From contig OZ024746.1 of NCBI GenBank assembly GCA_964016885.1, positions 48,670,001 through 48,734,000 on the forward strand: a DNA stretch of 64,000 bases. The letters are read 5' to 3'. Position 1 is the stretch's first letter. Each line of letters opens with the position of its first letter. The stretch is from Eledone cirrhosa (Eukaryota). The notes below the pieces were generated by a model, which saw only the letters and a list, made by a program, of their open reading frames with translations, had not been told where the DNA came from and made no database searches. The position numbers and the translations under genes were made by a program. This document shows, in pieces, positions 5,774 to 40,760 of this stretch.

Positions 5774-6309
5774 CATATATACACACACATATATATATGT
5801 ATACACACACACACATATATATATATACAAGTATATACATTGAAAGAATTCTATTAGCATGAAGCGTTTGGCAAACAAATGTGATCCCAGATGAAGGTCT
5901 GTTCATAATAAATCTTTACTCGAGAGTAATTGAACAACGAATTTCCAAAGGTGAATGGATTACTAATTCTTTTCTTATTGGCCTGCTTGGTGCGATGAAT
6001 TATTTCATCTTGCAATATCTACTTGTATAGAGAAGAACCTGAAACGTTGAAAGTAAATAGTATCTCTTGGTCATGAACAGATACATCACAGCCTCATTAA
6101 ATAGATGTTGTCTGCTCCACAATTGAGAAATTATCAGCAATTTTAATCACAACATAAATAAACCTTCAATGAATCAATATCGCGGCCATTCGACTTGTTA
6201 GAAATAGCAACTCATTTTTTTCCCGATAACAATTTACCGTATTAATTTAAAGGAAGTCATAGATACATTGCATAATATAATTTTAGATTCACCCTGTTTG
6301 AATATATAA

Positions 6310-6525
6310 GGATTTCTACTATAGACACAAGACCAGCAAGTTGGTAGAGAGGGGAAAGTCGATTAAATTGACTCCAGTACATTACTGGTGCTTTATTTTA
6401 TCGACCCCGTAAGGCTGAAAGGCAAATCTAATCCCGGCGGGATTTGAACTCAGAATGTAAAGGGCCATAACTTTATACTGCAAAGCATGGTGTTCGACAC
6501 TCTACCGATTCTGCCAATGCACCAC
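6310..6525 (-). mobile_element. tRNA-derived SINE
   Basis: Reverse complement of the family consensus, full head to tail. Confidence 0.85.
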
Positions 6526-8214
6526 TTGAATATATAATGGTATTGTCGTGGTTGGAACGCCTTTGAGCGGCTAGAAAATCAACAATACAGTTTTAATAAG
6601 TATAGGAATTATGGAGTGGCTATGCGTATGTAGAAAAGTCCAAATAAATATTCTTCTCTGCAATAGGTATTGCAAATTGAGTAGAATCGCCATTGAGAGA
6701 TCTAATTATCTTTCTTAGTGATGGATTGACGCATCGCAACGCCGCTGTCGACATGCAAACCATCGCTCCTATCTTTCAATACCTCTCTGCAATCTCATAT
6801 CATCATCATCATAATAAAAACCTTCATTGAATAATCACAGTCTTCATTGCAGTCCTTCGTGTATGCACATATATTCAACTATACCTAGATATTCAACAAT
6901 TAACCAAATAAACATAAGACAAAATTAAGAAATTTCAAGAAAGTTTAGTAAAATCATTTGAGAACTTAGCTTGTCAAATAAACAGATCAAGCGAATCCCT
7001 GAGAGACTTTTATATTTCAAATGGATATATCTTTACGGCACTCCTTTTACACTTCACCAATCGCTATCCATCTTTATTTCAACGTCTATTTCTGCTTCTC
7101 TTAACGACATGAAAAATAATTATACAAACCTTTTGGTAACCTATGATTATTTTTACCTTTTGACAGGAAGCTGTCAAAGATAAAGAATGTGACAAACTAT
7201 TTTTCATTTTTATTTTTGTCCTTTTTAATTTCGTTTGTTGAGTGTTTGGAAATATATTTTCAGATATTTGCTGATATTAGAATTTTTAAAGACGCCATCT
7301 TTTATATTTTTCTCTTCGATATTATTTGTATATTTTTTTAACAGTTCACTTTAGATTTGGTGATTGTCATTATCAATATTATTGTGATTGAGAGATACGG
7401 ATTGATACAGTCGTTTGAACGCTACACAAAATGTATTGCCTTATTTAGTTATGGTCCAATATGTTCTGAATTCTAAATCCTTTTTGGCCACTCTCCTCGT
7501 CTTTCACCATTGGAGAGTCAATAAAATATATACCAACCAAGTACGATGGCGAATTTCATTGCGTTTTAGAGAAATCGTTGATTACTGTATTAATAATAAG
7601 TTTTTTGTTCTTATCTAATAAGAAGCTTCGAAACATTTCAACGCCTATTTCATTACCTGAGATAGAGCAATGGTTTCTCTTTAGCCTTCATAAAAATTGT
7701 TTAAATATTTGATATAGATGCAATATTTACACGTTGCATAGGTGATATAGGAGAGACATGAGGCATGCATTGAATGAGATGCAAGCTTAAGTTACACATA
7801 CGACATAGGGGGTAAATTAAAACCTGAAATGACACAGGATGAAGGGAACCTCAACAAACATTACTCCTACAACACCTGAAAATAAACCCCGATTCTAACA
7901 TTCTGACTACGGCCTATAACTTCTTAAGATTAATACACACAATTTGTAAGAGTTCATTGGGTTTGTGAATTTGTATGGGTTATGGGAAAATAAATCAGAA
8001 TACCTTAAAGGGGTTTATAACACTTCCTGATCTAACGCAAATTAAGTAGCACGCACTAAAATTGTTACGGAACGCCATCATCTTTTTGAAAGGTTTACTC
8101 CCCCTCTCTTTCTTTCAATCCACCTCTCTCTCCTTCTCTCCCCCTATCTGACCCACTCCCTCTCTCTCTCTATATATATATATACTGTATATATATATAT
8201 ATATATATATATAC

Positions 8215-8640
8215 ACGATATTAAATAAATGGAAACTATATTTATAAAACCATATTTATTTCATTATATATATTTCAGGGATATCATATTAAAAATATGG
8301 TATGCCTTCATCAGACAAAATACAATATAAACAGTCTTATAAATAGATAGATTTGACATACCTTACACTTCAACTTCCATTTAAAAAGTTGATTTGGTAG
8401 TGAAAAATGTTAGGGACAGTTATAGAGAAAACAGAAAGAAAGAAAGAAAGCGAAGAAAAAGAAGAAATGCATGCAACGAAAGACAGAGAGAGATAGATAT
8501 AGAGAGATAGATAGAGAGAAGAAATTCATGTAAAGAAAAAACAGAGAGAGATAGATAGAGAGAGAAAAAACAGAGGGAGATAGATAGATAGAGAGAGAGA
8601 GAAAAGAGAGAGAGAGAGAGAGAAAATAGAGAGAGATAGG
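8215..8640 (-). mobile_element. 3' terminal (pLTR) segment of Naiad-like PLE 'B', displaced by inversion
   Basis: Near-identical to 14267-~14697 (offset about 6052); contains a hammerhead; ends in (TA)n. Confidence 0.85.
8257..8322 (-). ncRNA. Type I minimal hammerhead ribozyme (PLE B)
   Basis: Minus strand reads tattttgt CTGATGA aggcataccatatt-tt-taatatgatatccct GAAA tatata TA atgaaata, with a long stem II, palindromic stem III and pairable stem I. Confidence 0.8.
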
Positions 8641-9048
8641 GTTAATCTTTTTGTAGATGGCAAATTTTGGTGGTAGCTGCAGGATTTGTTGTTCTTGTTC
8701 ACTGATTAAATTATTCCCATAAATATTTACTGTGTGGTCATTGATAAATTCTTCCGGTATTTTTACATCAGTCATACGCATATTTTTGATGTTATCTGGG
8801 TATTTTTGAGAATATTCTATTTTGATTTCTTGTAGTTTTTTTTCTATTCATCCATTCTAATTTCTTATTGAAATGCCTATTGCATTCGTTTCGGACGTAT
8901 TTCGTTTCACGTCGGGTGACGCTCATGAAGTCATCCCTTTCGTTTGGTGTGGTGAGATTTTGGACTTCCTTACCGTTAATGCGTTTCTGTCTGTAAAGTT
9001 CGTTGACTTTTGTGTATGTTGTTCTTTTCATATTAACTGTTATTGTGT
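8641..9048 (-). pseudogene. N-terminal fragment of the PLE 'A' ORF (inverted)
   Basis: Reads ...HFNKKLEWMNRK... and VNIYGNNLISEQEQQILQLPPKFAIYKKINP, the typical PLE N-terminal L.L.PKFA motif, which continues naturally into KTELEKCFTKIRW at 17518. Confidence 0.75.
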
Positions 9049-11146
9049 GTTTCTGCCCTAGTAGACCCATAAGAGGTAGAGCACCCACCATAACCTCAAT
9101 GGCAAAAAAGACTCCCATGGGGAGGTGGATTGGGAGGACCAAAGCTATACGGACCCCCCAAAACAATGATCAGGTAAGAAAAATGATCGCACATGCAATA
9201 GGGGCTAATATCAAAACTACCCTAAAGGGCCACATATTCAAGTTCAACGAGAAGATCTACACCCAAAATGAGGGAGCAGCCATTGGCGTCAGCATAGCTG
9301 GTGATGTTGCCAACCTTTTTATGGTATGGTGGGAAAGGAGACTTAAAGATCTCCTTAATGAGAGCTCCATAGACCTCATCATGTACTCTCGTTACGTAGA
9401 CGATATCAATATAGTTATAAGAACATCCCCACTAGAGAGCACTAACAAGTTTGATTTAGAACGTAGCACAATGGAAAGCATCCAGCAGATAGCTAATTCC
9501 ATACACCAGAGTATAACTGTAACTATCGACTACCCTTCCAAACACCCTAACAATAGACTACCTGTATTAGACACGGAACTCTGGATTAACACTATAGACG
9601 AGAGAGCCCAAATTCTCCACTCACACTATGCTAAACCCATGGCCTCCAAATATATGATACTCAAAAACTCAGCAATGTCCAGTAGTGCTAAGTTTAATAT
9701 TCTGATCGCAGATTTGGTACGAGTGATGAAGAATGTGTCCCTCATGTGCGACCGAACAGAAATGGAAAGACACATCCCACACTTCATCAACCGCATGCAG
9801 TTCTTTGGCTACAACCAAAGAGACAGAGTCAGAGTATACAAAGGAGCCATGGAGAAGTATAAGACCCTCATAGAACTGGACAAAAAAGGAATTTGCCCAT
9901 TATACAGGAGCAAATCATGGAGTAGCTTAGATAGGGCTAGACATAAGATAGGGAAAGCCACCTCATGGTACGACAACCAGAGATACCAGAGTGTCATGTT
10001 TGTGGACGCTACACTTGGAGGGAAATTAGCTAACCAGTGTAGAAAGGCCCTGAGAAAGACCCACTTAAAGATTAAGGTGGTAGAAAAGCCAGGAACCACC
10101 ATAAAATCCCTGATCAGCAAAACCTACCCTTTTAAGAAAACCCACTGTACTAATAGGAAATGTATCATATGTAAGGTAAATCCCCGGATAAACTGTAAAA
10201 CTAGAAACGTAGTCTATAGCATAAGATGTACAGAGGGTACTTGTAGAAACATGACAACAACATACATAGGCGAGACAGCTCGTAGCATAGGTGAAAGGAT
10301 AGACCAACACTGGGGGGAACTAAAATGACGAAAAAACGGGTCAGTACTATACGAACATGCCAGACAACAACACGACGGTAACATAGACAACATAGAAATT
10401 AGAATAATATCTAAACATAGAAATGACCCAGCAGATAGGCAAATCAGATAGGCCAGTGAAATAGAACTTAGAAGGCCAAGACTAAACAGAAAGAATGAAT
10501 GGAATAACAACAACACCCAAACAAACAACACTGACCTAAGAGAAGTATAAATAAATAAATAAATAGATAAATAAATAAATAAATAAATAGATAAATAAAT
10601 AAATAAATACATACACAAGCACAATAACAACAAACACATAAACACACACTAGTAAAGATAGAATGCATTAACCAATACACAGTCACCCAAACACGAACAC
10701 ACATCAAACAAAACACTATACACACACGCAAACGCATGCGCAAAGAAGACAAAATAAAATAAACAAACAAACAAATAAATATATAAACAGACTAAATAAA
10801 GATGGCGTAGACATACAATGTAACGGGAGGAAACAATAGCACCATTGACGATGTTGCAGATGTGCAACGAAAGAACTTTGATAAACTATATAAATGCGTT
10901 TGTGTCTATGTTGTATCTGTATTATTTTTGACCGTTGGTCAGTCAATGGCAACATTGAGGACCGAATAAATTAGATTACCGATATAAAAGACACAGAAGC
11001 GAAAAGCGAAAACCAACCAAACAGTGAGTGTGTTCTGTTATTAATTCTGGCAATATTACACAAATATGACCCTCCCCAAGTATAACAATATTTGTTTCGA
11101 CACACGATTTCATATAAAAAACTTCGCAAAACTAATTCATCGCCGT

Positions 11147-11150
<4 letters not shown>
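9049..11150 (+). mobile_element. PLE 'A' 3' copy: RT C-half, thumb, Zn-knuckle, GIY-YIG, 3' UTR with hammerhead
   Basis: GAAIG, RYVDD, LPVLD, CxxxxCxxC, NVVYSIRC..YIGETARS..ERI.QH. The frame continues past TGA 10326 and TAG 10449 to TAA 10550. 9049-10261 is near-identical to 19106-20318. Ends at (TA)n. Confidence 0.92.
10836..10889 (+). ncRNA. Hammerhead-like fold with U3 core variant (PLE A 3' end)
   Basis: atagcacca TTGACGA t-gttgca-gatg-tgcaac GAAA gaac TT tgataaactat. Confidence 0.65.
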
Positions 11151-11196
<46 letters not shown>

Positions 11197-11199
<3 letters not shown>

Positions 11200-11255
11200 A
11201 TAAGGGTGAAAGCAGCGATTCTTTGCTTAAACTCTAATCTGTTATTTTAATAAAT
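11197..11255 (+). mobile_element. Truncated copy of the TA-flanked 'AAGGGTGAAAGCAGCG' hammerhead element
   Basis: Matches 20862, 24919, 47855 (rc) and 48349; only the 3' half of the ribozyme is present. Confidence 0.75.
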
Positions 11256-11489
11256 ATATATAAATATATATATATAATTAAAAGCATTATATATATATAT
11301 ATACATATATAAAGAATAGACGAATAACAATATTTAACAATCACATAAGTTTTCTTAAACAGAAAAACATTTTTTCTCTATATGAAGAGTTCAATAAAAG
11401 CTTTTTTTGCGAGACATTGTCCAGTAAGCACCATCCTCAGAAAACAGAAAATATATGTTGTCGTTATGATTTCACGAAGATGCTTACTA

Positions 11490-11685
11490 AAGGTGCATGG
11501 TTAAATAGTTAGAACGTTGCGGCTAGAATCAGGAGGTTGTGAGTTCGATTCACGGACTGGGTGATGCATTGCGTCGTTGAGCAAACACTTTATTTGACAT
11601 GGCATGAATTTACTTAGCTGTAGAAATGAGTTGCAACGTCACTCGTGCCAAACTGTATCGGTCACTGCATTTCCTTTGGACAACA
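11490..11685 (+). mobile_element. Second tRNA-derived SINE family
   Basis: TGGTTAAATAGTTAG..GAGTTCGATTC tRNA head followed by TTGAGCAAACACTT body; related minus copy near 62040-62260. Confidence 0.65.
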
Positions 11686-12294
11686 TATATTCTAACCATT
11701 AGAAAGAGCAAAAATGAATGATTCACCTTCAAAAGATTTCTTATTCAATAACACCCCATTCCAGGCAGGCCATCACGGTTCTAATTATTGTTTTCTTTTT
11801 GTTGTCATTTAGCCTCAGGTCGGCCTAGATTGAAAAGTTCTATGACGAAAGAGATTCTAGGATAACTACCTCAACATTCGTTTCTAAGAATAGTGTATTT
11901 TACTGTACAATATCTAATGGGTCTTCTCTTTTTAGGACGGTAGGATGTAGTCGAAGGAGATTTTAGCTGCTATTCAAGAGAATTACGAAATCACGCAAAC
12001 GAACACTTGTTTACTTGTATATGTTATGAAAAGCAATCGTAAGAAGTTGTTTTCTTCATATCTGAATACAAATAACTTTTACAACCGAGAGTTGGATGAG
12101 TCCTAAAACTTGCTTTGGAGGTGCATCAATTATTATACAATACTGATTACCATATTGAATATTATGCAATATCAAAATAGACAATTTTAGTTACACAACA
12201 TTGATGATAAATGAGATGAGATCAACTTACATGATCTCATTATTATATAAAACAACTGCAATATATATATATATATATATATAAATGAAAAGTA

Positions 12295-13188
12295 TACGAT
12301 AGCCAAAATGCCACTAATTATAATATGCCAAAAAGGGAATTTAAAAGCAGGCTAGTTCAACATCATGCGTAATTATGAAAATAAAACGCACATGTGGAAA
12401 CAGGGCTGGTGACGTCAGAATGAGACGAATGTTTGTTTACATGAAACAACAGTCAAACACATTCCGAAAAAACTCTACAATAAGGAGTTCAGCAAAAAGC
12501 AATATTATCGTGGGTTTTTTTAAAAAAGACCGGGATTAGTCACAAATAATTTAAGCACTCTAGGAAAGAAATCCGAGTATAAATATAAATGAAAAGTATA
12601 GAAATTATTGTAGCAAGAAGCCAACAGTATTCCATAATATATAAGTGACTATAGCGTCAAAATGGGAAAATAGTTAACGTAAGATGTGGGAAAAATATTT
12701 CAAACTCAATTTAAAAAGAATCAGGATATAGATTCATCCAACAGAATTTAGTGAAATCCATTGAAAAATCAATAGAGCCTTAACTCATGATAAAATAACG
12801 TTTAAAATACTCATCCTTCAATTTGGAAAAACGACAAATGCTCTGTTTAGTCTTGAAAAGACTATTTCACGAAACTTTCAGTGTGGATGGTCACGGTTGG
12901 ATTCGATCATCAGCAGAGCTCAACACGATAGCCAAAATCTCACTGATTATAATATGCCAAAAAGGGAATTTAAAAGCAGGCTAGTTCAACATCATGCGTA
13001 ATTATGAAAATAAAACGCACATGTGGAAACAGGGCTGGTGACGTCAGAATGAGACGAATGTTTGTTTACATGAAACAACAGTAAAAAACATTCCGAAAAA
13101 ACTCTACAATAAGGAGTTCAGCAAAAAGTAATATTATCGCGGGTTTTTAAAAAAAAAAGACCGGGATTAGTCACAAATAATTTAGCAC
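12295..13188 (-). mobile_element. Non-coding partial-tandem element (unit ~630 bp) with hammerhead, TA-flanked (retrozyme or non-autonomous PLE-like)
   Basis: A ~260-bp direct repeat (12297-12558 vs 12926-13188) brackets a hammerhead at 12840-12919; (TA)n on both sides; no ORF. Confidence 0.75.
12840..12919 (-). ncRNA. Type I hammerhead with full stem III (cleavage-site U mutated to A)
   Basis: gctctg CTGATGA tcgaa...ttcgt GAAA tagtctt-ttc-aagacta AA cagagc; stem I is 6 bp and stem III is 7 bp, both perfect. Confidence 0.75.
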
Positions 13189-13709
13189 ATATATATATAT
13201 ATAGTGTATATATATAGTATATATATATAGTATATATATATATATGTATATATATATGGGTGTGGGTGTCGATGTGCTGTATTGCCTCTTGCTTTCGGAT
13301 CCGTTAATTATTTATGTTTTCTATGCATTTGACAGTTACTTTGAAATCCGATAACATGCGGTTTTGTAAATGTTAAATTTGAGTCCATAAATATCGGATA
13401 TAATTCCATAAAAACATAACCGTGAAACACAATTATCTCTGACCAAAACAACCAATAGTCATTACTACAATAGCCAAGATTACTCCCCTCAACCAATAAC
13501 TACCCCATCACAAACATCATCATGACTCTCATTCTTTCTCCTCCCTCTCCGCCAACTTCTCTTTCACTCCCACACAACTATTCAACATTATATATATCAT
13601 TGTAACCGTCAGTAACCTGATTACCTTTTTCATCATCATCAATAACAACATCAGTAACAATAAATGAGAGAGGTATAATGATTTAGAGAAGTATTATTTT
13701 ATTGACAAA

Positions 13710-13932
13710 GGGCAGAGGATTGGCGGAATCGGTAGAGCGTCAGACAACATGCTTAGCGGCCTAGAATTATGGCTCTTTACGTTCTGAGATTAAATACCAT
13801 CAAGGTTAGCTTTGCCTTTCATCCGTACGGGGTCGATAAAATAAAGTACCAGTAATGCACTGGGGTCGGTTTAATCGACTTTCCCCTCCCCCAAAAATTG
13901 TTGGCCTTGTGCCTAAATCAGAAACAATTATT
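13710..13932 (+). mobile_element. tRNA-derived SINE, full length, with target-site duplication
   Basis: Family consensus; TTATTTTTATTGACAAAGG is repeated on both sides (about 13693 and 13928). Confidence 0.85.
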
Positions 13933-14143
13933 TTATTGACAAAGGAGTGACAAAAAAGAAATGTGATCAAAATGTGATTATCAAATGACCCGAAATCATT
14001 TTGTCCGACTATCAAATGCGGATGTTTTTGACCATTACGTAAAATTGTGGCATGCCGTGGTTTTATGTTGTAAATCATAATATGACAGCTTCTTTAGACC
14101 ACACAAGTGTAGGCCCGTTTATATTTTGAAACAATTTTACTCG

Positions 14144-14178
<35 letters not shown>

Positions 14179-14182
<4 letters not shown>

Positions 14183-14865
14183 AAGTATTATTTAAATTGT
14201 TGGGTTACAACGAGTAAATATTTATAACTGATATAAAAGCACTCAACAGGTATTTGGAGTATATTTACGATATTAAATAAATGGAAACTATATTTATAAA
14301 ACCATATTTATTTCATTATATATATTTCAGGGATATCATATTAAAAATATGGTATGCCTTCATCAGACAAAATACAATATAAACAGTCTTATAAATAGAT
14401 AGATTTGACATACCTTACACTTCAACTTCCATTTAAAAAGTTGATTTGGTAGTGAAAAATGTTAGGGACAGTTATAGAGAAAAAAGAAAGAAAGAAAGAA
14501 AGCGAAGAAAAAGAAGAAATGCATGCAACGAAAAACAGAGAGAGATAGATATAGAGAGATAGATAGAGAGAAGAAATTCATGTAAAGAAAAAACAGAGAG
14601 AGATAGATAGAGAGAGAAAAAACAGAGGGAGATAGATAGAGAGAGAGAGAGAGAGAGAAAAGAGAGAGAGAGAGAGAGAGAAAATAGAGAGAGATAGATA
14701 TAGATAGAGATAGAGAGAGAGAAAAATAGGTAGTTGGGCACCAGTTGAATGACGTATCAATGATATATTTATTTATTTATTTATTTATTTAGTTCTAGTA
14801 TTAAGGTAGAGAGAGATATATGTGGTTAGGAGAGAAAACAGCCGTTACATAGAGAGAAAAGAAAA
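14179..14865 (-). mobile_element. Inverted 3' copy (pLTR plus ~88-nt extension) of PLE B
   Basis: 14725-14865 is the reverse complement of 17364-17505; 14267-14697 matches 8215-8638; hammerhead at 14309-14374; abuts (TA)n. Confidence 0.88.
14309..14374 (-). ncRNA. Type I minimal hammerhead ribozyme (PLE B inverted copy)
   Basis: Same sequence as 8257-8322. Confidence 0.8.
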
Positions 14866-17517
14866 TGACCTGCCAGTCAGATTGATTGCACCATCAAAAT
14901 CTGACCTGGGTAAACTTAGCAAAAACATTCTAGACAGGGTGATACAGCAAATTAAAAACTTGAATTGTTTACCTAACTTGAGCTTGTGGAAGGGAACTGG
15001 AGAGGTTATTGAGTGGTTTAAAGAAATTAAATATAACAATAATAATAAATTTATTCAACTAGATATTGCTAACTATTATTCATCTATTACCCCTAATCTA
15101 CTAAATAAGGCACTAAATTACGCATTCAAACATACAGACCTAACTAGTAATGAAATGCACATTATATTATCGGCTAGGAAAACATTGATAGAATTTAATA
15201 ACCAACTATGGACAGATAGAGATAACAATTTCGACATTACTATGGGATCATCCGACTCAGCTCAGGTAACGGACCTTGTGGGCCTATTTATAATCAATTC
15301 GCTGCATAGGAAAATACCCGGTGTTACCAGAGGATTATATAGAGATGACATGCTTTTACTTATTGAAAATAATAACTCTGAACTAAATAGAAAAAGAAAA
15401 CAAATTACACAATTTTTTAATTACTTTAATCTAAAAATAGAAATTGAGAATAACCATAGAACAGTCAATTTCCTAGATGTAACATTAAATCTCAACACAT
15501 GTCTTCACTATCCATTTCACAAGTTGAACGAAAACTCAAACTATGTCAGTTTTAACTCTAACCACCCCAGATCTGTTAAAAATACTATAGTGAACTCTGT
15601 TCAAAAACGTATCTCTAGAATATCATCTAATAAAAAGATTTTAGACGAAAAAGCCCAGTATTACAATGAAGCGTTAGCTAGAGCAGGATATAGTGATAAA
15701 ATTATGTACATAGATAATAATAGACAAACTAATCAAAATAACAACAATTTTAATTACGGCAACAACTTTAACAACTATAATAGAAAGCATTACAATAATT
15801 CCAAAAGCCAAAAATGAAATAGAACTAGAAATATAATATGGTTTGCCCCCCCTTTCTCACTAAACATTAAAACCCACATCGCTAAACTATTTTTTAATGC
15901 TCTTGATAATCGCTTCCCTAGAACACATAAGTATCACTCAATTTTCAATAGACATACTATAAAATTAACTTACTCATCCACCAAAAATTTAGCACAAAAT
16001 ATTAATAGAATAAATAATAGGAATTTAAAACCTAGCAAAAATACCGATAATAGCCTAAATAATATCCAAGTAAACAAATGTAACTGTAGAGATAGATCTA
16101 AATGTCTGTTAAATAACAATTGCTTAGTTAAAAATATAATATACAACTGTAATGTTAAAACGGACTTAAATTCTTTTAACTATGTTGGTTCCACCTCGAC
16201 AGAATTTAAACTTCGCTATAATAACCACAAGAATTCTTTCACAGATCCAAGCAAAAAATCTTCAACATCACTATCAGGCTTACTCTGGCAACTTAAGCAT
16301 GATAACGTTGGATATTCGACGGCTTGGAATATAGTCTCAAGAGGGATTCCTTTTAATTCATCTTCTGAGACATGTGACCTCTGCGCGGAGGAGATATTCT
16401 TTATACTAAAATCTAAAAATTCCCTTAATTTACGGACAAATTTATTCAGTTGCTGCAGACATAGATTGAACTCAACTTTTAAATATAAATATAAATTTAA
16501 AATGTAGTATATTTACTTATGATTTGTAATTATTTATGAAACTCGCCGATAAATCTTTCGATTTCTTTTTTTTAAACATTCTTCATTAATAATTAAACTA
16601 CCCTAAAAGATGATGCTCCAAATATATCGAATAAATTTTACACTAGATAAACTTCTATAATAAATATAAGACCATCTGTAGATCAAATGGGTATCCTAAA
16701 CTTTTGGAATGATTTCTGCTAGACAGGATTTGGTGAATAATTTTGGTTTTGTTTGCTTTTGATTCTGATGCTTATAATGAACTTGGCAATATATTGTCAA
16801 TTAATTTTGAAGGGTAGATTTCTGTGGTTGATTTGCGGGGCATACTGTGTTTTATTTTTTAATATTTTTAATATTTTTATTGATATATTGATATCTGTTG
16901 TCTATTTTATGCTTGAACGATAATCATGTAGAGTAAAGACAAGAATATTATTGTTAAAATTAATGTAGATTCTATATATATTTGTGTGTATGTACACATA
17001 TATGTATACTAGAATTTTTATAGCACAATGAGAATGTTTTCATGTGAAATAGGAATTTGCAGAGTTGATCACGTAAATTCACATGGATGTCTATAGTATC
17101 GAATCTGGGATAACCTTCTATTTTCTTTTTCTTTTTTCATGAAAGTGCATATATACTTATGTATTTCAATTTTTTTGAAGTTTTTAACTCAGTTCTGATT
17201 ATAAACCTAGGAATTTTAAACTAGACATATTTTTCACAAATTATTGATACGTGTCTCATTCATGAATACTGATATTTACATTATAATACCTAATTCATAC
17301 GAATTGATATTTTAGATTGATGAAACATAATGTTTTAAATCTGCCTCGTTTATCTCTGGATATTTTTCTTTTCTCTCTATGTAACGGCTGTTTCCTCTCC
17401 TAACCACATATATCTCTCTCTACCTTAATACTAGAACTAAATAAATAAATAAATAAATAAATATATCATTGATACGTCATTCAACTGGTGCCCAACTACC
17501 TATTTGTCTCTCTCTCT
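14866..17517 (+). mobile_element. Naiad-like Penelope element 'B', 5'-truncated; RT plus GIY-YIG ORF to 16507 with one in-frame TGA; long AT-rich 3' UTR
   Basis: RLIAPSKSDLGK, FIQLDIANYYSSI, FDITMGSSDSA, GLYRDD, VNFLDVTLNL, SNHP. Past TGA 15815 it reads IIWFAPPFS, CNC...C.L.N.CL, IIYNC..YVGST, CDLC..E, SCCRHR, ending at TAG 16505-16507. Confidence 0.92.
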
Positions 17518-20318
17518 AAAACGGAGCTGGAAAAGTGTTTCACAAAAATACGTTGGAATGCAAAAGTAAACAACAACAACAACAATAATAACAGTAGTAG
17601 TAATATAAACAATAACTCTGAGTATAGAAATAACAGCCATAACAATAACAATAGCAGGAGAGTGAGAAATAGTAATAATGGTAATAATACTAACGATAGA
17701 CAGAACAACAACAACAACCACAATAATAATAATAATAGAAACATTAACCACAGACACAGCAGCAGCGACCACAGTAGTAATAACGGTAACAATACGAACA
17801 ACAAAAACAACAACCACAGTGGTAATAATGGAAATAATACATGTAGCAACATTAATGATAGACACAACAAAAACAAGAAACATAATAAAAGTAACAACCA
17901 CAATGGTAGAAATAACAGTAACAACAACAATAACGGTGAAGTAAACAACAATCACAGCAACAATACATCTAGCAACCATAACAACAATACATCTAACAAT
18001 CACAGCAACAATACATCTAGCAATCATAACAACAATACATCTAACAATCACAGGAACAATACACCTAGCAATCATAACAACAATACATCTAACAATACAT
18101 CTAGCAATCATAACAATAATAATAATGCTAATGATAGGAACAACAACAACCACCATAATAACAATAATAGCAACACACACAACTATGACGATAGATATAA
18201 TGACAACCCCTTAGAGAAACTATTTTTCAACCCAGCTGACGAAACATATAGGATGGGTAATATCTATCCTACGAGGTTACCCTTTAATAAAAGAGTTTGC
18301 ATACCACAACAAATAGATGACGAGACAGAGGCACAGTTCACGATAGCTAGAAATAAGATTAGACAAATAGTAGACCGGTATACTAAGAGACAGAGCAGAC
18401 CAGAAGCCCAACAACTTGGGAGGAAAACTGTAGAAGGCTTGGTTAGCCTCAAGCAGCGCACAAGTGATGGTGAGATAGTATGTCTACCCACGGATAAGTC
18501 TGGTAGGATGTCAATAGATAGCATGCCGAACTACATCAAGACTATGCAACATCACCAACACGAGCGAAATTGCACAGCAAACACATGATGGGAGAGAGAA
18601 AATCCTCAACGCTCTCATGATGATGTGGACTGACATCCTAAAGCCAAGCAGACGCACTGACAACAACTTCCAGGCGTCTAACAATGGAATACAACCCTTG
18701 TATGGGCTCCGCAAAGACCACAAGACAGTCGACGACCCGACAACAGGACCACCAACAAGACCCATATGCGGAGCTAATATAGCTAGCAACTACAGGATCT
18801 CCTACTTCCTATCAATGGTTATACGCCCCATAATCAAGATGTCCCCAGATGTATGTGACAGTACAGAAGACCTCCTCAGCAGAATCAGTGAGTGCAACAA
18901 AAACAGGAACCTATCCAACTGCATAATAGGCAGCATGGATGTGGTATCACTGTACCCATCCATTAACATTGATTTTGCTGTGGAAAAATGTGTGGAGATG
19001 ATCATTGAGAGTGAGGTGGAGTTCTGCGACGTCGACACAGACGAACTGGCCTCCTACTTAGACTTACCTACGACACTGACTACCTAGACAGCCATGACCT
19101 TAGACGTTTCTGCCCTAGTAGACCCATAAGAGGTAGAGCACCCACCATAACCTCAATGGCAAAAAAGACTCCCATGGGGAGGTGGATTGGGAGGACCAAA
19201 GCTATACGGACCCCCCAAAACAATGATCAGGTAAGAAAAATGATCGCACATGCAATAGGGGCTAATATCAAAACTACCCTAAAGGGCCACATATTCAAGT
19301 TCAACGAGAAGATCTACACCCAAAATGAGGGAGCAGCCATTGGCGTCAGCATAGCTGGTGATGTTGCCAACCTTTTTATGGTATGGTGGGAAAGGAGACT
19401 TAAAGATCTCCTTAATGAGAGCTCCATAGACCTCATCATGTACTCTCGTTACGTAGACGATATCAATATAGTTATAAGAACATCCCCACTAGAGAGCACT
19501 AACAAGTTTGATTTAGAACGTAGCACAATGGAAAGCATCCAGCAGATAGCTAATTCCATACACCAGAGTATAACTGTAACTATCGACTACCCTTCCAAAC
19601 ACCCTAAAAATAGACTACCTGTATTAGACACGGAACTCTGGATTAACACTATAGACGAGAGAGCCCAAATTATCCACTCACACTATGCTAAACCCATAGC
19701 CTCCAAATACCTGATACTCAATAACTCAGCAATGTCCAGTAGTGCTAAGTTTAATATTCTGATCGCAGATTTGGTACGAGTGATGAAGAATGTGTCCCAC
19801 ATGTGCGACCCAACAGAAATGGAAAGACACATCCCACACTTCATCAACCGCATGCAGTTCTCTGGCTACAACCAAAGAGACAGAGTCAGAGTATACAAAG
19901 GAGCCATGGAGAAGTATAAGACCCTCATAGAACTGGAAAAAAAAGCAATTTGCCCATTATACAGGAGCAAATCATGGAGTAGCTTAGATAGGGCTAGACA
20001 TAAGATAGGGAAAGCCACCTCATGGTACGACAACCAGAGATACCAGAGTGTCATGTTTGTGGACGCTACACTTGGAGGGAAATTAGCTAACCAGTGTAGA
20101 AAGGCCCTGAGAAAGACCCACTTAAAGATTAAGGTGGTAGAAAAGCCAGGAACCACCATAAAATCCCTGATCAGCAAAACCTACCCTTTTAAGAAAACCC
20201 ACTGTACTAATAGGAAATGTATCATATGTAAGGTAAATCCCCGGATAAACTGTAAAACTAGAAACGTAGTCTATAGCATAAGATGTACAGAGGGTACTTG
20301 CAGAAACATGACAACAAC
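17518..20318 (+). mobile_element. Penelope-like element 'A' main body (non-Naiad clade, exact clade uncertain), frameshifted and 3'-truncated
   Basis: PTDKSG, PLYGLRKDHK, PTRPICGA, GSMDVVSLYPSI, GAAIG, RYVDD; frameshifts near 18560 and 19050; breaks off before YIG. Confidence 0.92.
17565..18200 (+). repeat. In-frame Asn/His/Ser-rich low-complexity tract with 21-bp repeats inside the PLE A ORF
   Basis: AAC/AAT-rich; (N)HSNNTSS/NHNNNTS repeats at about 17950-18115. Confidence 0.85.
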
Positions 20319-20332
20319 TTGTTCTGCTTATC

Positions 20333-20381
<49 letters not shown>

Positions 20382-20559
20382 GCATTTTGAAGACCTTACG
20401 CTATTGTTTTAAAGTAGTGACAGTGTCACTTACTTCTTCAAATTTCAGCAAACAACAATTTTTGCTGGACCGGCAACCACTCTGTATAATCAGTGGCTGA
20501 GGATTTCAGAGACATGGAAGATTCACTGTGATACTGTGTGTGACAAACTGGTCATGCCA

Positions 20560-20690
20560 TCCATCTGACAGACTTCTAAACAGTTTCCGTGTACACAATT
20601 TCACTTGGTTGACTCGATGTTATAGTAGATGGCCAATATGTCACGCAGTGGGATAAAACCCAAAACCTTTTGATTAAGAACACACACACA
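20560..20690 (-). mobile_element. Degraded tRNA/CORE-like SINE
   Basis: CAGTTTCCGT..TATAGTAGA..CACGCAGTGGGATAAAACCC resembles the reverse complement of a SINE head and core. Confidence 0.5.
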
Positions 20691-20824
20691 TATATAATAT
20701 ATATATATATGTATGTATATATATGTATATATGTATATCTATCTATAGATATGTATATATATATACACACACACACATATATATATATATAGAGAGAAAA
20801 GAGAGATGGATATATATATATATA

Positions 20825-20900
20825 TCTATTTATTAAAATAACAGTTTCAGAAGATCCCGTTAAGGGTGAAAGCAGCGATTCTTTGCTTAAAACCTTTAAT
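20825..20900 (+). ncRNA. Hammerhead-like element with CAGAAGA core
   Basis: agttt CAGAAGA tccc-gttaa-gggt GAAA gca-gcgattctt-tgc TT aaaac, preceded by an inverted copy of the family 3' end. Confidence 0.6.
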
Positions 20901-20953
20901 CCCTCTCTCCCCCTCTCTCCCTCTCTCCCTCTCTCCCTCTCTCTCTCTCTCTT

Positions 20954-21007
<54 letters not shown>

Positions 21008-21026
21008 TATATATATATATATTTAT

Positions 21027-21065
<39 letters not shown>

Positions 21066-21067
<2 letters not shown>

Positions 21068-21204
21068 GGTGGTAGAATTAGCCGTCGAAACGGCTTGAGC
21101 TCAGCTGTCGGGGTCCTACTGGTTCCTATTACCCACTCTACTACCTCAAGTATTGAGTACTTTGGTGCGTTATGGTCCACCTGGTTCCTTACCACATTTC
21201 CTTC

Positions 21205-21206
<2 letters not shown>
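21066..21206 (+). mobile_element. TA-flanked element carrying the 3' half of a hammerhead (family also at 42801-42990 and 63630)
   Basis: tagccgtc GAAA cggct-tgagctc-agctg TC ggggtcc followed by a tail homologous to the reverse complement of 42801-42930. Confidence 0.65.
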
Positions 21207-21239
<33 letters not shown>

Positions 21240-21394
21240 TATATATATATAATAGGTATAGGATTATCCTAGATGTAGTAATGGTTAATTACTACACTAG
21301 ATATGGTTGACGTACGGTGAGAGGTTACTCAACGAGTTATGGAAGAATTGTTGAAGAAACTTAGTTCCTGATCCTTCTGTATTCCGGAGTGTAG

Positions 21395-22366
21395 ATAAAG
21401 AATGAATAATAACAGGTAGACATCATAAAAAGGTAATTTATTCCGTGTGCTTACAAATGTTTCCACGGTGGTAATACAGCCTAGTTATGCTATGTGCAAA
21501 TTTACAACTATTTGCAGAACTCAAATATCAAATGCTGTGACCACTGTATCATCAGAGCAGAATGGTTAAAATGTACAATGTAAATACCCTTAAGTGAGGT
21601 TATTGGAGAAGATAGAGTAGAATAGGAAGAGAGGAAAAGTAGGGGAGAGGGAGAGAGAGAGAAAGATATGCAGAGGTTGGAAAAATAGGAGAGAGTGGTT
21701 TGTAGATATCTTAATCAAAATATCATGGTAGGGGTTTTATTATACTGGTTACTTTTAGGGAGATGCGTTGATAGTCAAGGTTGGAATTATTTATTGCCCC
21801 AGAGGGCAGGTTCATAGATGTGGAGAGGGAGGGAGGTAGGCAAAAGGCGAGAGAGAGAGTGGAATTGATATAGAGGGAGAGATAGAGAGAGGACAGACGA
21901 AGTCTTTGGGGTGGGTGAACTTTGGGTTCGTAGTAGTAATCTGCGAATTGCACTGAGTTACCATTTATTATGATAAGCAGGGTATTGTCTTGTAGTGTGG
22001 GGGAAGAGAAGGTGGTTAGCTAGAAAGCGATGTTATAGTTACGGGTTCGAATGTTAAGTTATTTTATAGTGAGAGAATTTAGCTTTTAGTTTGTGGTTGC
22101 AGTATAATGATCGTTCGATTCTATCGTTAAGTAGTTTATTTTTGGATTTTAATATGTAAAAGAGTTCAAGGTTACATAACCTACAGTACTTCAATCCACT
22201 CCGATATGCACTTGCGCTGGAAAGTATATCCCATTTTAAGGTGAACTGTTGGTTACGTTCACGGAGTTGCCAGGTCTTGTTGGCGAGCGTGATCACAAAA
22301 CGTTGATCAGGATGTTTGATTGAGAATCGATGACGGTACCAGCGAGATTTAAACGAGGTGGTGGTA
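21395..22366 (-). mobile_element. Inverted 3' copy of PLE 'C'
   Basis: Reverse complement of 23815-24760; encodes the GIY-YIG C-terminus; hammerhead at 21440-21563. Confidence 0.92.
21440..21563 (-). ncRNA. Type I hammerhead with extended stem II (PLE C inverted copy)
   Basis: Reverse complement of 24592-24715. Confidence 0.8.
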
Positions 22367-24754
22367 AGATTAGACTTATATGCTCTTCTAAATCAGACAT
22401 AGGAAAAATTAGCAAACATATACTAGACAGAGTAATATCTCAAGTGAAAAAGAAAATTGAAATTAAATTATGGGACAACACTAGCGAAGCAATTCGCTGG
22501 TTTAATAACGTTAAGAATAAGAATAAATCTAAGTTCATACAATTTGACATAGACGAATACTACTCTTCAATCTCACCAAGTACTTTACGTAAGACCCTAT
22601 CGTTTGCTAAAGTCAATTCCGACCTAACGGAGGACGAAATTAATATTATTCTCGAGGCTAGGAAAACTATTATTAAGTTTGATAACTGCTACTGGGAACG
22701 TAAGGACAGACCCACAAACTTCGACATTACCATGGGTTCCAACGACTCCGCGGAGGTCACGGATCCTGTGGGAATTTACATAGCTCACATACTACATAGT
22801 AAATTTAGTAATCTACAGGGGGGGGGGGGGATATACAGAGATGACGAGCTCTTATTAGTTAATAACTTGAATAACCAAAATCTTGAAAGGCTACGGAAAA
22901 ATATTAGAAAATCTTTTAGTGAACTGGGTCTAAAAATAACATAGGAATACAATCTTAAAGTAGTAAATTTTCTGGACGTAACTCTTAATTTAAATACCGG
23001 AGTGATACGACCCTTCCACAAGATAAATGAGAACCTTACGTATATCAACTTTAACTCAAACCACCCACTCTCCATGATCAAATCGGTTCCCCGTAGTATT
23101 TCTCTTAGAATCTCTCGCCTATCGTCTGACTCTGAAATTTTTAGTGAACATGCTGAATACTATAATAATGCATTAAGGAATGCCGACCACCGGGATACAA
23201 TAGAATACATTGATAAGAATCTCCATAACACACATAGCTCTACACGAAATCAAGGAATACGTAACCGGGGGACTAAAATACAAGCGCACACACACAGTAC
23301 CGCCAGACATACTAATAATAGAAAATCACCACCAAATAAATCACGTTGTAGAAAGTATATCTGGTACAATCCTATTTTTAATGCCTCGACTAGTACAAAA
23401 CTATCTCATTCATTCTTTAAGTTAATCAACAATCATTTCCCTAGTTCCCATAAATACAGTAAAATTCTGAACTCTAAAACTATTAGACTATCATACTCCA
23501 CGGCACCAAACCTTGAAGCATACATAAAAAAACTTAACTTAAAGCAATTAAACAACACTACAAAACAAAATATGTTGGCAACAGATGGGCAGAAAGGTAA
23601 CATCTGCCTCCCAACCACTAAATGGGAGACGGGTATTACACAACCCACCTGTACTGCTATCACAATCTATCCATGGTATACCCGCTACCCTCAACAAAAA
23701 ATGTAACTGCCATCTACCTGAAAGATGTCCATTGAAGAATGAATGCCTAAAGTCCAACATTGTTTACCAATGCACGGTTGAATCCAACGACCAAAAATGG
23801 TATTACATCGGATCTACCACCACCTCGTTTAAATCTCGCTGGTACCGTCATCGATTCTCAATCAAACATCCTGATCACCGTTTTGTGACCACGCTCGCCA
23901 ACAAGACCTGGCAACTCCGTGAACGCAACCACCAGTTCACCTTAAAATGGGATATACTTTCCAGCGCAAGTGCATATCGGAGTGGATTGAAGTACTGAAC
24001 TCTTTTACATATTAAAATCCAAAAATAAACTACTTAACGATAGAATCGAACGAACATTATACTGCAACCACAAACTAAAAGCTAAATTCTCTCACTATAA
24101 AATAACTTAACATTCGAACCCGTAACTATAACATCGCTTTCTAGCTAACCACCTTCTCTTCCCCCACACTACAAGACAATACCCTGCTTATCACTATAAA
24201 TGGTAACTCAGTGCAATTCGCAGATTACTACTACGAACCCGAAGTTCACCCACCCCAAAGACTTCGTCTGTCCTCTCTCTATCTCTCCCTCTATATCAAT
24301 TCCACTCTCTCTCGCCTTTGGCCTACCTCCCTCTCCAGATCTATGAACCTGCCCTCTGGGGCAATAAATAATTCCAACCTTGACTATCAACGCATCTCCC
24401 TAAAAGTAACCAGTATAATAAAACCCCTACCATGATATTTTGATTAAGATATCTACAAACCACTCTCTCCTATTTCTCCAACCCCTGCATATCTTTCTCT
24501 CTCTCCCTCTCCCCTACTTTTCTCTCTTCCTATTCTACTCTATCTTCTCCGATAACCTCACTTAAGGGTATTTACATTGTACATTTTAACCATTCTGCTC
24601 TGATGATACAGTGGTCACAGCATTTGATATTTGAGTTCTGCAAATAGTTGTAAATTTGCACATAGCATAACTAGGCTGTATTACCACCGTGGAAACATTT
24701 GTAAGCACACGGAATAAATTACCTTTTTATGATGTCAACCTGTTATTATTCATT

Positions 24755-24760
<6 letters not shown>
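22367..24760 (+). mobile_element. Naiad-like Penelope element 'C', 5'-truncated and pseudogenised
   Basis: RLICSSKSDIGK, FIQFDIDEYYSSI, FDITMGSNDS, IYRDD; TAG at 22942; frameshift near 23560-23700; CNC..CPL.NECL, IVYQC..YYIGST; 17-nt deletion near 23998; ends at (TA)n. Confidence 0.92.
24592..24715 (+). ncRNA. Type I hammerhead with extended stem II (PLE C)
   Basis: attctgct CTGATGA tacagtggtcacagc...gctgtattaccaccgtg GAAA catttg TA agcacacggaat. Confidence 0.8.
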
Positions 24761-24809
<49 letters not shown>

Positions 24810-24812
<3 letters not shown>

Positions 24813-24968
24813 ATAATAATAAATTTGAATACTAAAATCCAAAGAGGGCTCGATAAGGATAAATATATATCAAATATATAAGAACCGTAGAGCAAATAGA
24901 GTTTCAAAAGATCCCGTTAAGGGTGAAAGCACCGATTTTTTGCTTAAACTTTAATCTGTTATTTTAAT
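24810..24968. mobile_element. TA-flanked 'AAGGGTGAAAGC' element: inverted extension joined to a hammerhead arm
   Basis: 24810-24898 is the reverse complement of 48403-48490; 24900-24950 is agttt CAAAAGA..GAAA..TT aaact. Confidence 0.75.
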
Positions 24969-24971
24969 ATA

Positions 24972-25066
<95 letters not shown>

Positions 25067-25662
25067 TTATACAATGATATAGAGTAAAGGATGTTTATAA
25101 AAATAATTATTAATAAGACTTGTACGAAAAGAGTTTGTGTAAAAATAATAATAAAAAAACAGAAATAAGTAGAAATGAAATATAAAAAAGAAAATAAGAA
25201 AATCAAAACAGATTTCCAAAGAAAATAACAGAACGCCATAACAACCACATTTGTCGACCTTCCATTTCACCCCTTGTTTTCCTATTTTTATGGTATATTT
25301 TGATTTCATATTTTACTTCTAGTTTCTCCTATTTGTTTAGACAAGATAAATAATTACCTTTACCAACATTAAAAATAATACATATTTTATTATTCTACAT
25401 ACTCTATAACTAATCACGTATTAATAACATATTTAATATATAATCCTAAAAGTTTGTGTGTCCATTTCTCCTTCACTTCTTTCATTGTTTTGGTCTTCCC
25501 TTCTGCGCCATTTTAGACAATGCGTGTCTTACCTCCTTTCCTATTTATCATTCACTTTCATTTCTCATTTGTTCACTCTCTATAGTTGTCTGTTTCCCTA
25601 TTATTTCTCCCTCTTTTTCTCACTCTTTTTCTTTTCTTTAGACGCTCTACTGTTGTCACAAT

Positions 25663-25728
<66 letters not shown>

Positions 25729-26045
25729 CCTCTTTCTCTCTGGAAAATGTTTTTTAGTCCTGTGCATCAAAAGTCATTTCATTACAGAAAGACTGAAAGA
25801 CAATATGAATATGTACGTTCATGTGGAGGTATGTAAATATGTATATTTGTGCAGAAGAGATACACATGTAATAACATTTTCATTTACCTGTGCACACTCA
25901 GACACACACACACACACACCCATACACACATACACACAAACATACACATACATACATGTGTATATAGATACATAATAAATGAAACAAACAAAACACAGGA
26001 GGCAATTTTTACATATTAGGTTCTATATACATGTGTGTGTGTGAT

Positions 26046-29088: not shown

Positions 29089-29539
29089 GTTCTCGTCTTC
29101 TTTGCGACACATTCATGGGAAGATCAAAACAAAGAACAAAGACAACAATAGATGGAATTGCCGTGAATGACACACCCTTCATAACAGATGAACATAATTA
29201 ATTATTTCAGATTTAGACACATGACCAACAATTTCAAGGGGAAGAGCAAGTCAATTAAACCAATCCAAATACGTTACTGGTACTTTATTTTCTCGACCAC
29301 ATAAGGATAAAAGGTGAAGCTAACCACGGCATGATTTGAACTCTGAGATGTAAATGGTAAATTTCTCTTTTAATATAAAGTGTTTCCGTCTTTAGACTTG
29401 ATTTCCTCAACCTTCAGTCAAATATAAATAGATATCAAAATATTTATAGTTTGGTTGAAGATTTGCGTAGAGATATCTTTGTTTTAATCTTTGTTTTTTA
29501 ATGTCTCGGGTTGCATTTGCTTTTGAATATATGTTAAGA

Positions 29540-29752
29540 TTGTTTCTACATTAGGCACAAGACCAGCAATTTTGTGGGAAGCAGAAAGTCGATCGAATCG
29601 ACACCAGTGCATTACTGGTACTTTATTTTATCGATCCCGTAAGGATGAAAGACAAAGCTAACCTCGGCGGGATTTGAACCCAGAATGTAAAGATCCATAA
29701 CTCTATGCTGTAAAGCATAGCGTCCGACCCTCTACCGATACTGTCAATCCAG
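29540..29752 (-). mobile_element. tRNA-derived SINE (further fragments at 29200-29350 and 29855-29930)
   Basis: Reverse complement of the family consensus. Confidence 0.85.
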
Positions 29753-30827
29753 GGAACAAAAAATCAGTAGTGCATCAAATACATATCTAATTACGTATTA
29801 CATATGTTTCAGGAACGATTCAGTAACGATCAAAATATGTTCGAGGAAATCCAATTGAACGTAAAGGGCCATAACTATATGCTGCAAAGAATAGTGGCTG
29901 ACGCTCTACCGATGCTGCCAAACCACCGTTAATATTAACATTAACACAGGCATATAATATATGTAATAGAATTACAATGGAAGTTTCCAACAAGTGTTAT
30001 TTATGTATGCCTGATAATATTGTCTATATGTTGTTTCTCAATGTGTGTGGATGCATGTGTTAGTATGTGCACGTGCCTTTCTCTCTCTCTTTCTGTATGT
30101 CTGTCCAGGTGTGTATGTGTATGTTTGTGTTTCTTGAAATGTACTATGTGAATCCCTAAAATGCGTAATAGCGAATATCATTCGAGTAAACAAAATTAAC
30201 TACAAGATTCATATTAATCGCTATCATGTCTAGCTGCCTGGAACAATACATACATGAAAAAAAAAAAATATATATATATATGTACTATTAATAATGAGTT
30301 CAAATCTGAGGTAGTCCTTTACAATTTGAACTCATTATTAATAGTATCACTGCTCCTTACGTAGAGCTAAATTTAACCCCATATAAACGGCTGTTATTTC
30401 TAGCAGCACGAGTATGCGGTAGCTAGACACTGGATAACCATGTGTGAAAAACCATGTGCGTTAAACAGTTTTTTTAAATATTTTGAAGTGAAACATACCA
30501 ATTTTTCTGGTGCTTGCTGAGGAGATAGAAATGCGGTATTCTTTCACTTTCATTTTTCGAAACTTATTTGGATTTTAAGGTTTAAACCAGTCTACGGAAC
30601 AGGTTTGATTTTGAAATTTAAATTTGTCCAAGCACCACGGCCATTTGCCAATATACTTTGTTTTATTGATTTATTATTTTAAATCGAGACAGGCAAACTG
30701 TATTATTATAATTAGTATTTTTCAATCTAGCTAACTTAGTCATTTACAATACAAAAATGGATATGTTGGTATTTGTGTTGATCAAATATAGTAATTTATA
30801 TTAACTTGTATATATATATGTATATAT

Positions 30828-31612: not shown

Positions 31613-31835
31613 TAATAAAAGGAATTCCAACTTTAACTGATTTACTCGTTTTATTTACAATCCTTTAAAATTATAATGGTATGAGAATGAAATAGTATGG
31701 TAGAATATTAAATGTTAAGTGTTAATTGAACAAGTACTTTCTTGCTTTCGCAATCTTCAGGTTCATTTTCTGTGGTGACAGTCAAGTTTGCAATTTTCAA
31801 CTGTAGATATATATGTATATATATATATGTATATA

Positions 31836-31911
<76 letters not shown>

Positions 31912-31914
<3 letters not shown>

Positions 31915-32354
31915 GATATTAAACAAATGGAAACAATATTTATAAAACCATATTTATTTCATTATACATATTTCGGGGATACCATATTAAAAATATGGCA
32001 TGCCTTCTTCAGATAAAATACAATATATAAACATTTTATAAATAATTTTGACGTACCATAAATATTGACCAACCGTTATGTAAAAAGCTGGTTTTTACAT
32101 AACGGTTGGTCAATATTTATGGTACGTCAAAATTATTTATAAAATGTTTATATATTGTATTTTATCTGAAGAAGGCATGCCATATTTTTAATATGGTATC
32201 CCCCAAATATGTATAATGAAATAAATATGGTTTTATAAATATTGTTTCCATTTGTTTAATATCGTATATCTACTCCAAAACATGTCGAGTGCTTTATATC
32301 AGTTATAAAATATTTACTTGTTGTAACCCAACAATTTTATATAAAACTTTTGCA
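31912..32354. mobile_element. Palindromic mini-PLE (relative of the B pLTR): two ~175-bp inverted arms, each with a hammerhead, plus an ~88-nt extension
   Basis: Arms 31912-32086 and 32092-32266 are near-perfect reverse complements. CTGAAGA..GAAA at 31955-32020 (-) and 32158-32223 (+, GAAA changed to CAAA). Homologous to 8215-8340 and 14179-14390. Confidence 0.9.
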
Positions 32355-32648
32355 TATATATATATGTATGTATATACATACATATTTGTATATATTGTTA
32401 TACATAAATATTTAAATATTTGTATATACATGTATTATTTGGTTTGTTGTTTAGTTTGTTGTTTTATTTTCTCATACATATGTATATATATATTTCGTTT
32501 CTGAATTTGTATATATATATATATACACATATATATATACACACATATATATATACACACACATATATATGTATGTATATGTATATATATATGTATGTAT
32601 ATATATACATGTATATATACATATATATATACATATATACATGTATAT

Positions 32649-40470: not shown

Positions 40471-40569
40471 GTATCTATGTACTTGATTATATACAAATAC
40501 AATGAGAAAAGGGGTCCAAGGAGAAATGTGAAAGCAAGGATAGTAAGGAGTGTATATATATATATATAT

Positions 40570-40755: not shown

Positions 40756-40760
<5 letters not shown>
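40570..40760 (-). mobile_element. Single-arm copy of the 43111 palindromic family
   Basis: Highly similar to 43111-43300; TA-flanked. Confidence 0.85.

Follow-up and report, generated by a model that had tools for sequence, protein, structure and literature searches.

How do two different retroelements come to be cut apart and joined crosswise to one another? The question is raised by a 64,000-nt stretch of the Eledone cirrhosa genome (assembly GCA_964016885.1, contig OZ024746.1, positions 48,670,001 to 48,734,000 of the forward strand; hereafter "the window", numbered from its first letter), in which two Penelope-like elements (PLEs), here called A and B, are each split in two, with 8.9 kb between the two cross-joins. 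A preliminary description of this DNA had proposed a microhomology-mediated inversion between non-homologous elements. Our analysis gives good support to an inversion whose two breakpoints lie within non-homologous PLEs, and the lack of similarity between A and B stands with it; microhomology, by contrast, is not demonstrated, as A falls about three codons short where its pieces meet.

The window is AT-rich, microsatellite-rich animal DNA without N bases. On the minus strand, the N-terminal frame of A ends with ..PKFAIYKKINP at 8638-8640 and is followed by the GA/CT-repeat 3' region of B (junction 1, lying where a 200-bp tract with 87% purine ends). On the plus strand, the 3' untranslated region (UTR) of B passes at 17518 into KTELEKCFTKIRW (KTELEK..) of A (junction 2). 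Both junctions read as previously described, and every 12-mer that spans one of them, with four or more bases to either side, is unique within the window. Repeat pairs were taken from a filtered self-BLAST, the unfiltered run having been swamped by microsatellites, and from pairwise alignments. As assembled, the arms of A (9049-10261/19106-20318) are direct repeats with 12 substitutions in 1213 bp. B has a direct pair, 8208-8639/14260-14697, with 97.3% identity in the filtered self-BLAST (3 substitutions and 6 gap columns within a microsatellite when 8215-8639 is aligned pairwise), and an inverted pair, 14711-14865/17518-17364, with 2 substitutions in 155 bp. The two arm pieces of B, the outer of which was left outside the inversion, match adjoining parts of the intact arm and leave out exactly positions 14698-14710 (13 nt), in agreement with the shortfall of about 13 nt reported earlier. 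Coordinates are collected in Table 1.

Table 1. Positions, within the window, of the junctions, the pieces of elements A and B, and the features used for comparison
Feature	Positions	Strand	Remarks
B short arm, outer 432 bp (3' end, sense on minus)	8208-8639	-	abuts (TA)n at ~8170-8207
B hammerhead-like motif, putative type I	8265-8314	-	pattern match only
Junction 1	8637-8640		B arm (match end 8639) abuts reverse-complemented A N-terminus; breakpoint 8639/8640
A N-terminal piece	8640-9048	-	~136 codons; frameshift near 8840
A second copy, 5'-truncated (inverted arm before the flip)	9049-11150	+	right end approximate
16-mer	11273-11288	+	exact repeat at 20371-20386; just 2 exact copies in the window
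Host DNA in the inversion, ~2.9 kb	11290-14180		SINE-like dispersed repeats; 265-bp local duplication
B intact long arm	14181-14865	-	inverted copy of B 3' end; reference for judging the B break; ~85-nt tail 14181-14266; hammerhead-like motif 14366-14317
B main copy	14866-17363	+	5'-truncated reverse transcriptase, CxCX5C linker, endonuclease to 16507, then 3' UTR
B short arm, inner 155 bp	17364-17518	+	98.7% to reverse complement of 14711-14865; broken from 8208-8639
Junction 2	17516-17519		B 3' UTR joined to A continuation; breakpoint 17518/17519
A main copy, remainder	17519-20318	+	Asn-rich stretch, DKSG, reverse transcriptase, linker; frameshifts near 18550-18620 and 19050
Element C, outside the inversion	21248-24763	+	intact head-to-head; arms 21392-22366/23815-24763; ~140-nt tail
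Small B-family hairpin	31906-32355		one short end, one tailed end; defines B termini

We reverse-complemented positions 8641-17517 in silico and tried six variants of this flip. The flip makes the A arms inverted repeats (99.0% identity over 1213 bp) and merges the end pieces of B into a single inverted arm (606 columns, 95.4%, two gaps); the resulting layout of the arms in both elements is that of element C, as had been claimed for the two direct duplications. Direct or inverted terminal repeats with an optional tail, which characterize PLEs, are present in C as assembled, and in A and B once the segment is flipped. Two reciprocal junctions are present, and flipping restores both broken sequences, as in a balanced inversion.

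Several orientation markers agree. The B termini at 8208 and 14181 point in the same direction as assembled and outward once flipped. The small B-family hairpin shares both of these ends, one starting at the same base as 8208 beside (TA)n and the other carrying the same ~85-nt tail as 14181-14266, and we therefore take them to be B's true termini. In C, a hammerhead-like motif lies downstream of the open reading frame (ORF) and on its strand; in B this is so only after the flip, since as assembled both copies of the motif are on the minus strand and the ORF is on the plus. The two copies of a 16-mer lie past (AT)n beyond each A arm and are direct now but inverted after the flip. Base-composition skew, also tried as an orientation marker, gave no signal.

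Protein relatives put the pieces of A in the same order. Full-length relatives match the minus-strand piece and then the piece from 17518 with consecutive residues, and XP_029643478.1 of Octopus sinensis, which is 49% identical to the N-terminal piece, carries both pieces and an asparagine (Asn)-rich stretch like that of A in one chain. The relatives set the two pieces three residues apart. By column scores, spacer column 12 is the one offset at which the right piece has a positive score (+25.2 bits; the other 11 are negative), and column 1 gives +20.4 for the left piece. The spacer from the LPPK(F/Y) motif to the RW motif is 22 residues long in 24 of the 24 reverse transcriptase (RT) relatives with both motifs, out of 35 hits (23/23 by a stricter pattern; 11/35 are without one or both motifs by pattern and were left uncounted). 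A second search, with HMMER and the N-terminal piece, gave 22 residues in 7/7 relatives with both motifs; the remainder of its 10 hits are an unrelated repeat protein (P0073) and two that end before the RW motif. A word-index search with the N-terminal piece yielded no relative (0/22 candidates). The closest named relative of the RT region comes from Octopus vulgaris (65% identity), and the O. vulgaris relative P0001 begins past the junction and is uninformative for the join.

After the flip of 8641-17517, the spacer in A has 18 residues; joined through one CTA it has 19, the maximum in the six flips. As the relatives have 22, about 9 nt of A would be missing, and the comparison suggests that about 9 nt net were lost at the join, unless the A lineage had lost them earlier. 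The claim that the flip restores a continuous A ORF therefore goes too far: an in-frame join is possible, but with a spacer of at most 19 residues in place of 22, and A has three frame changes besides.

The shortfall in A also bears on the CTA(T) microhomology that had been reported at the junctions. TAG at 8637-8639 and CTA at 17516-17518 do exist, but both CTAs align to, and are supplied by, B's own CT/TA repeat. Given the loss of about 9 nt from A, the two cannot represent a single trinucleotide shared with A, and the original argument, which presupposed that the crossover cost A no bases, fails. The Pro and Lys codons imply at least 1-2 nt of overlap with A at the junctions. In one octopus relative (P0072), an Ile directly after the Pro position would fit the B repeat, and a few nucleotides of microhomology are possible. 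Between A and B as a whole, the best blastp match has E 0.99, the best blastn match E 0.30, and the longest common word near the breaks is 5-6 nt; with no detectable similarity, ectopic homologous recombination between them is not supported. The junctions thus show what is expected of end-joining, namely no extended homology between the breakpoints and small deletions (13 nt in B, about 9 nt net in A), and small-deletion end-joining is compatible with the evidence whether or not microhomology took part.

We consider it probable that two breaks arose in already-inserted elements and that their ends were joined crosswise, inverting the 8.9 kb between them. In the earlier state, B would have stood on the minus strand, followed by about 3 kb of host DNA and then by A on the plus strand, each presumably as a head-to-head insertion into (TA)n of the kind seen in C. 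One break would have fallen in the purine-rich 3' UTR of B and the other in the N-terminal ORF of A, and crosswise repair by non-homologous or microhomology-assisted end-joining may have trimmed about 13 nt of B and about 9 nt net of A. Candidate triggers for the breaks are a triplex that the GA tract might form, the long inverted arms folding back on themselves, and a nick by a PLE endonuclease at TA-rich sequence. Small losses at both breaks are consistent with two-break end-joining, and the near-zero net change at both junctions suits it better than independent replication template switches. In the account given for Drosophila melanogaster (PMC6278893), two-break end-joining is the main source of inversions and ectopic recombination the other standard route.

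Several points count against this reading. Its timing is weakly constrained: the arms of A and B are equally divergent (12/1213 versus 5/580, Fisher p = 1.0; C, at 15/949, versus A, p = 0.24), which equally allows an event at the time of insertion. Non-homologous and microhomology-assisted repair are both compatible with the bases lost from A, whose number comes from a comparison with relatives no more than 49% identical there, so that an older, lineage-specific deletion is possible. The junctions are known from assembled sequence alone, and PLE inverted structures are described as troublesome for assemblers (PMC8557442).

The trinucleotides at the junctions could also be read as traces of a clean exchange, reciprocal and with almost nothing lost, through a single CTA(T) common to both elements, by microhomology joining or template switching, given that a one-CTA join reads in frame with a spacer of 19. 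However, an in-frame join is expected by chance one time in three, the spacer has 22 residues in 31/31 relatives with both motifs, and both CTAs align to the B repeat; an exchange of this kind appears unlikely.

Other accounts place the event at insertion. A and B would have been reverse-transcribed together at (TA)n sites about 3 kb apart, and outward-primed complementary DNAs would have swapped templates, or broken intermediates would have been cross-ligated, inverting the intervening 3 kb of host DNA on arrival. Sense polarity is kept at both junctions (5'-A into B-3' on the minus strand, 5'-B into A-3' on the plus), as such an event would have it; little was lost at either junction, the arms of A and B have diverged equally overall, and L1 offers a precedent in synchronous insertions that produce reciprocal inversions with chimeric or "sawed" bridges, as described in the accounts available (10.1101/2024.08.27.596794, PMC13526784, 10.1101/2024.12.14.628481). 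The breaks, however, are internal, lying 409 bp from 9048/9049 and more than 2.6 kb from 14865/14866, the natural free ends, whereas the twin-priming L1 example exchanges at free ends (10.1101/2024.08.27.596794). By our own estimate, sense-sense polarity arises from geometry about half the time. The RTs of A and B are unrelated, whereas L1 reporter events are reported to be favored by homology (PMC13526784). A may also be the older element, with 3 frameshifts versus none in the B ORF, and one block of its arms is more divergent than B (11/339 versus 5/580, p = 0.015, for a block picked post hoc). Synchronous insertion thus seems quite improbable, and we give just as little credence to its template-swap form, in which the RTs of PLEs from different clades trade RNAs reciprocally in the germline; there, each RT could land only on RNA that the other was about to copy, and gaps of exactly 9 and 13 nt would result.

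An assembly artefact, arising from mis-joined contigs or chimeric reads among multi-copy PLEs, would be in keeping with the known difficulty of PLE inverted structures (PMC8557442) and with an odd pattern in the A arms. Eleven of the 12 differences between these arms fall within 339 bp (9551-9889/19608-19946), a clustering matched in 43 of 200000 random placements; 10/12 alter the amino acid, and derived-looking changes are found in either arm, so that a one-sided mutation burst was rejected. Such clustering suggests that the parts on either side underwent gene conversion or that reads were mixed during assembly. The assembled sequence is nevertheless gap-free and N-free, and the junctions lie outside shared repeats, with 12-mers unique in the window; moreover, a repeat-driven flip leaves no new chimeric sequence, and an artefact would need two reciprocal chimeras with small deletions. 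We regard it as very unlikely. Finally, truncation is frequent among PLE copies (PMC8557442) and affects both ends of A, but independent insertions complementing each other by chance, with no inversion, are highly implausible, as the truncations would need to meet within about 10-15 nt (9 and 13 nt as found) in two 3-5 kb elements and in the right orientations (roughly estimated at 1e-4 or less), and B's two true termini would still point one way as assembled.

The two-break, end-joined inversion that we favor resembles those described for D. melanogaster (PMC6278893), which are likewise balanced, without long breakpoint homology and with small losses. It differs in being just 8.9 kb long, with breaks that happen to lie in young retroelements and so allow the earlier state to be read, and in that no inverted duplication from staggered cuts is demonstrable. 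The DAIBAM and Galileo inversions attributed to ectopic recombination in the same source also have transposons at both breakpoints and reciprocal chimeras, but they need two opposite copies of one family, whereas A and B have no detectable similarity. The reciprocal L1 inversions (10.1101/2024.08.27.596794, 10.1101/2024.12.14.628481, PMC13526784) share the swapping of retroelement pieces between junctions; as described, they are somatic, involve one enzyme (L1 ORF2p) and, in twin priming, exchange at inversion points, whereas here the RTs are unrelated and the breaks internal. The literature searched, whose coverage was incomplete, yielded no inversion that links PLEs of two different clades.

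As individual insertions, A, B and C resemble the head-to-head PLE insertions in published descriptions (PMC8557442, PMC3846280), with an inverted 5'-truncated copy beside the main copy and a tail at one end; (TA)n targets, hammerhead-like motifs and an Asn-rich insert are also shared. The tails here are longer, about 85 nt in B and 140 nt in C versus 30-40 nt in those descriptions, and the Asn-rich stretch of A is N-terminal, whereas the inserts described there lie around the thumb or linker. The origin of PLE tails has been ascribed to internal initiation (PMC11167929).

The event was probably an end-joined, ordinary small inversion of a known kind, whose breaks fell in transposons. It is probably neutral, since both copies were already 5'-truncated and the flipped host DNA has no recognizable coding domain and yielded no host exon (Pfam at E<=0.01 matched 0/35 ORFs of at least 35 aa in 11300-14140, the interval scanned), and a neutral 9-kb inversion in repeat-rich DNA is of little consequence in itself. 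Breaks inside transposons are to be expected in a repeat-rich genome (that of O. vulgaris is reported to be about 66% repeat; PMC13282606), and become recognizable only when they cut elements of known structure. What makes this a clean case is that duplicated arms and relatives bound both parental sequences to a few bases. It illustrates that chimeric transposons at both breakpoints need not mean homologous recombination, and such junctions can contaminate repeat consensus libraries. Were a synchronous swap true instead, it would bear directly on the unresolved mechanism of PLE integration and would extend synchronous-retrotransposition rearrangements from tumor L1 to unrelated retroelements in an animal germline.

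The identity of the elements rests on short motifs and domain order. An RT with a C-terminal GIY-YIG endonuclease, the combination that marks EN+ PLEs, is found in A, B and C, in B through its 51% identity to C. The endonuclease motif of A was read directly; A also has TDKSG and a CX4CxxC linker before the endonuclease, motifs by which we assign it to the Neptune/Nematis type, whose marks are given as a DKG-type motif and a CX2-5CxxC linker (PMC8557442). Pfam RVT_1 matches in A are weak (E 0.0009 and 0.001) and under curated cut-offs, as are those in C to RVT_1 (E 0.0019) and GIY-YIG (E 0.00021); B has no Pfam match. B and C both have a CxCX5C linker, their ends adjoin (TA)n and they carry hammerhead-like motifs, all of which point to Hydra-type PLEs. 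The published marks of that clade are the CxCX5C linker and DKT in place of DKG (PMC8557442); the DKT/DKG region is lost in B and C, and among B relatives DK[T/S] is found in 35/36 and CxCX5C in 29/36. The B ORF has an in-frame TGA at 15815 and no frameshifts. Target-site duplications could not serve as evidence, being unreadable in (TA)n.

The N-terminus of A is about 80 codons short of the longest relatives, and the main copy ends at 20318 within the GIY-YIG domain. The second copy contains the C-terminal half of the RT, the CX4CxxC linker, a GIY-YIG domain with two in-frame stops, and the 3' UTR; a possible degenerate hammerhead in this 3' UTR, near 10845, failed the pattern scan described below. 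The Asn-rich stretch at 17560-18200, in the N-terminal region, is 52% N over 210 aa with the frame kept. The O. sinensis relative is annotated "serine/threonine kinase tsuA", probably a mislabel owing to its Asn run. Between the truncated end of A and an (AT)n run lie 21 nt (20319-20339).

Hammerhead-like motifs were sought with a pattern of our own, built on a core consensus. Between 7.5 and 26 kb it gave 4 hits, which are two motifs each in two arms (of B and of C); 100 shuffles gave 0.11 hits on average and never more than 1. Rfam on 7500-26000 returned 17 matches at E<=1, all below the gathering score, most on AT repeats and none to a hammerhead. Three more pattern hits lie outside A, B and C, at 31732-31760 (minus), 48980-49029 (plus) and 54133-54178 (minus), the last with helices of 7 bp and 12 bp.

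The window also contains near-perfect hairpins with arms 98-99% identical, at 31906-32355, 43106-43530 (with a partial copy at 40565-40759) and 53932-54012. The one at 31906-32355 is a non-autonomous derivative of the B family and has a degenerate hammerhead core. Tails on one arm are seen in B (14181-14266, about 85 nt), in C (21248-21391, about 140 nt) and in two hairpins (32272-32355, about 85 nt; 43494-43530, about 30 nt), and the untailed arms of B, C and two hairpins stop at an internal TA-like motif against (TA)n. B and C are 5'-truncated within about 4 codons of each other (14866 and 22367), at RT residue ~190-200 of most relatives, with the truncation points directly against their own inverted arms. 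This agreement may be fortuitous, or Hydra-type PLEs may favor a stop or switch at that position.

The flipped host DNA contains a 265-bp direct duplication (12296-12558/12925-13188, 95%). A ~220-bp dispersed repeat, which from its size and spread we take to be like a short interspersed nuclear element (SINE), has more than 10 copies of 72-90% identity, at 894-1119, 1833-2034, 6306-6523, 13710-13937, 29200-29930, 43950-44450, 49550-49740, 52830-53200 and 58650-61780. Another short dispersed repeat occurs as five pieces (11201-11250, 20843-20901, 24880-24970, 47795-47926, 48348-48404), usually beside (TA)n, and is possibly the 3' end of a further retroelement. At 39709-40596, a low-complexity degenerate tandem tract gives long spurious ORFs on both strands.

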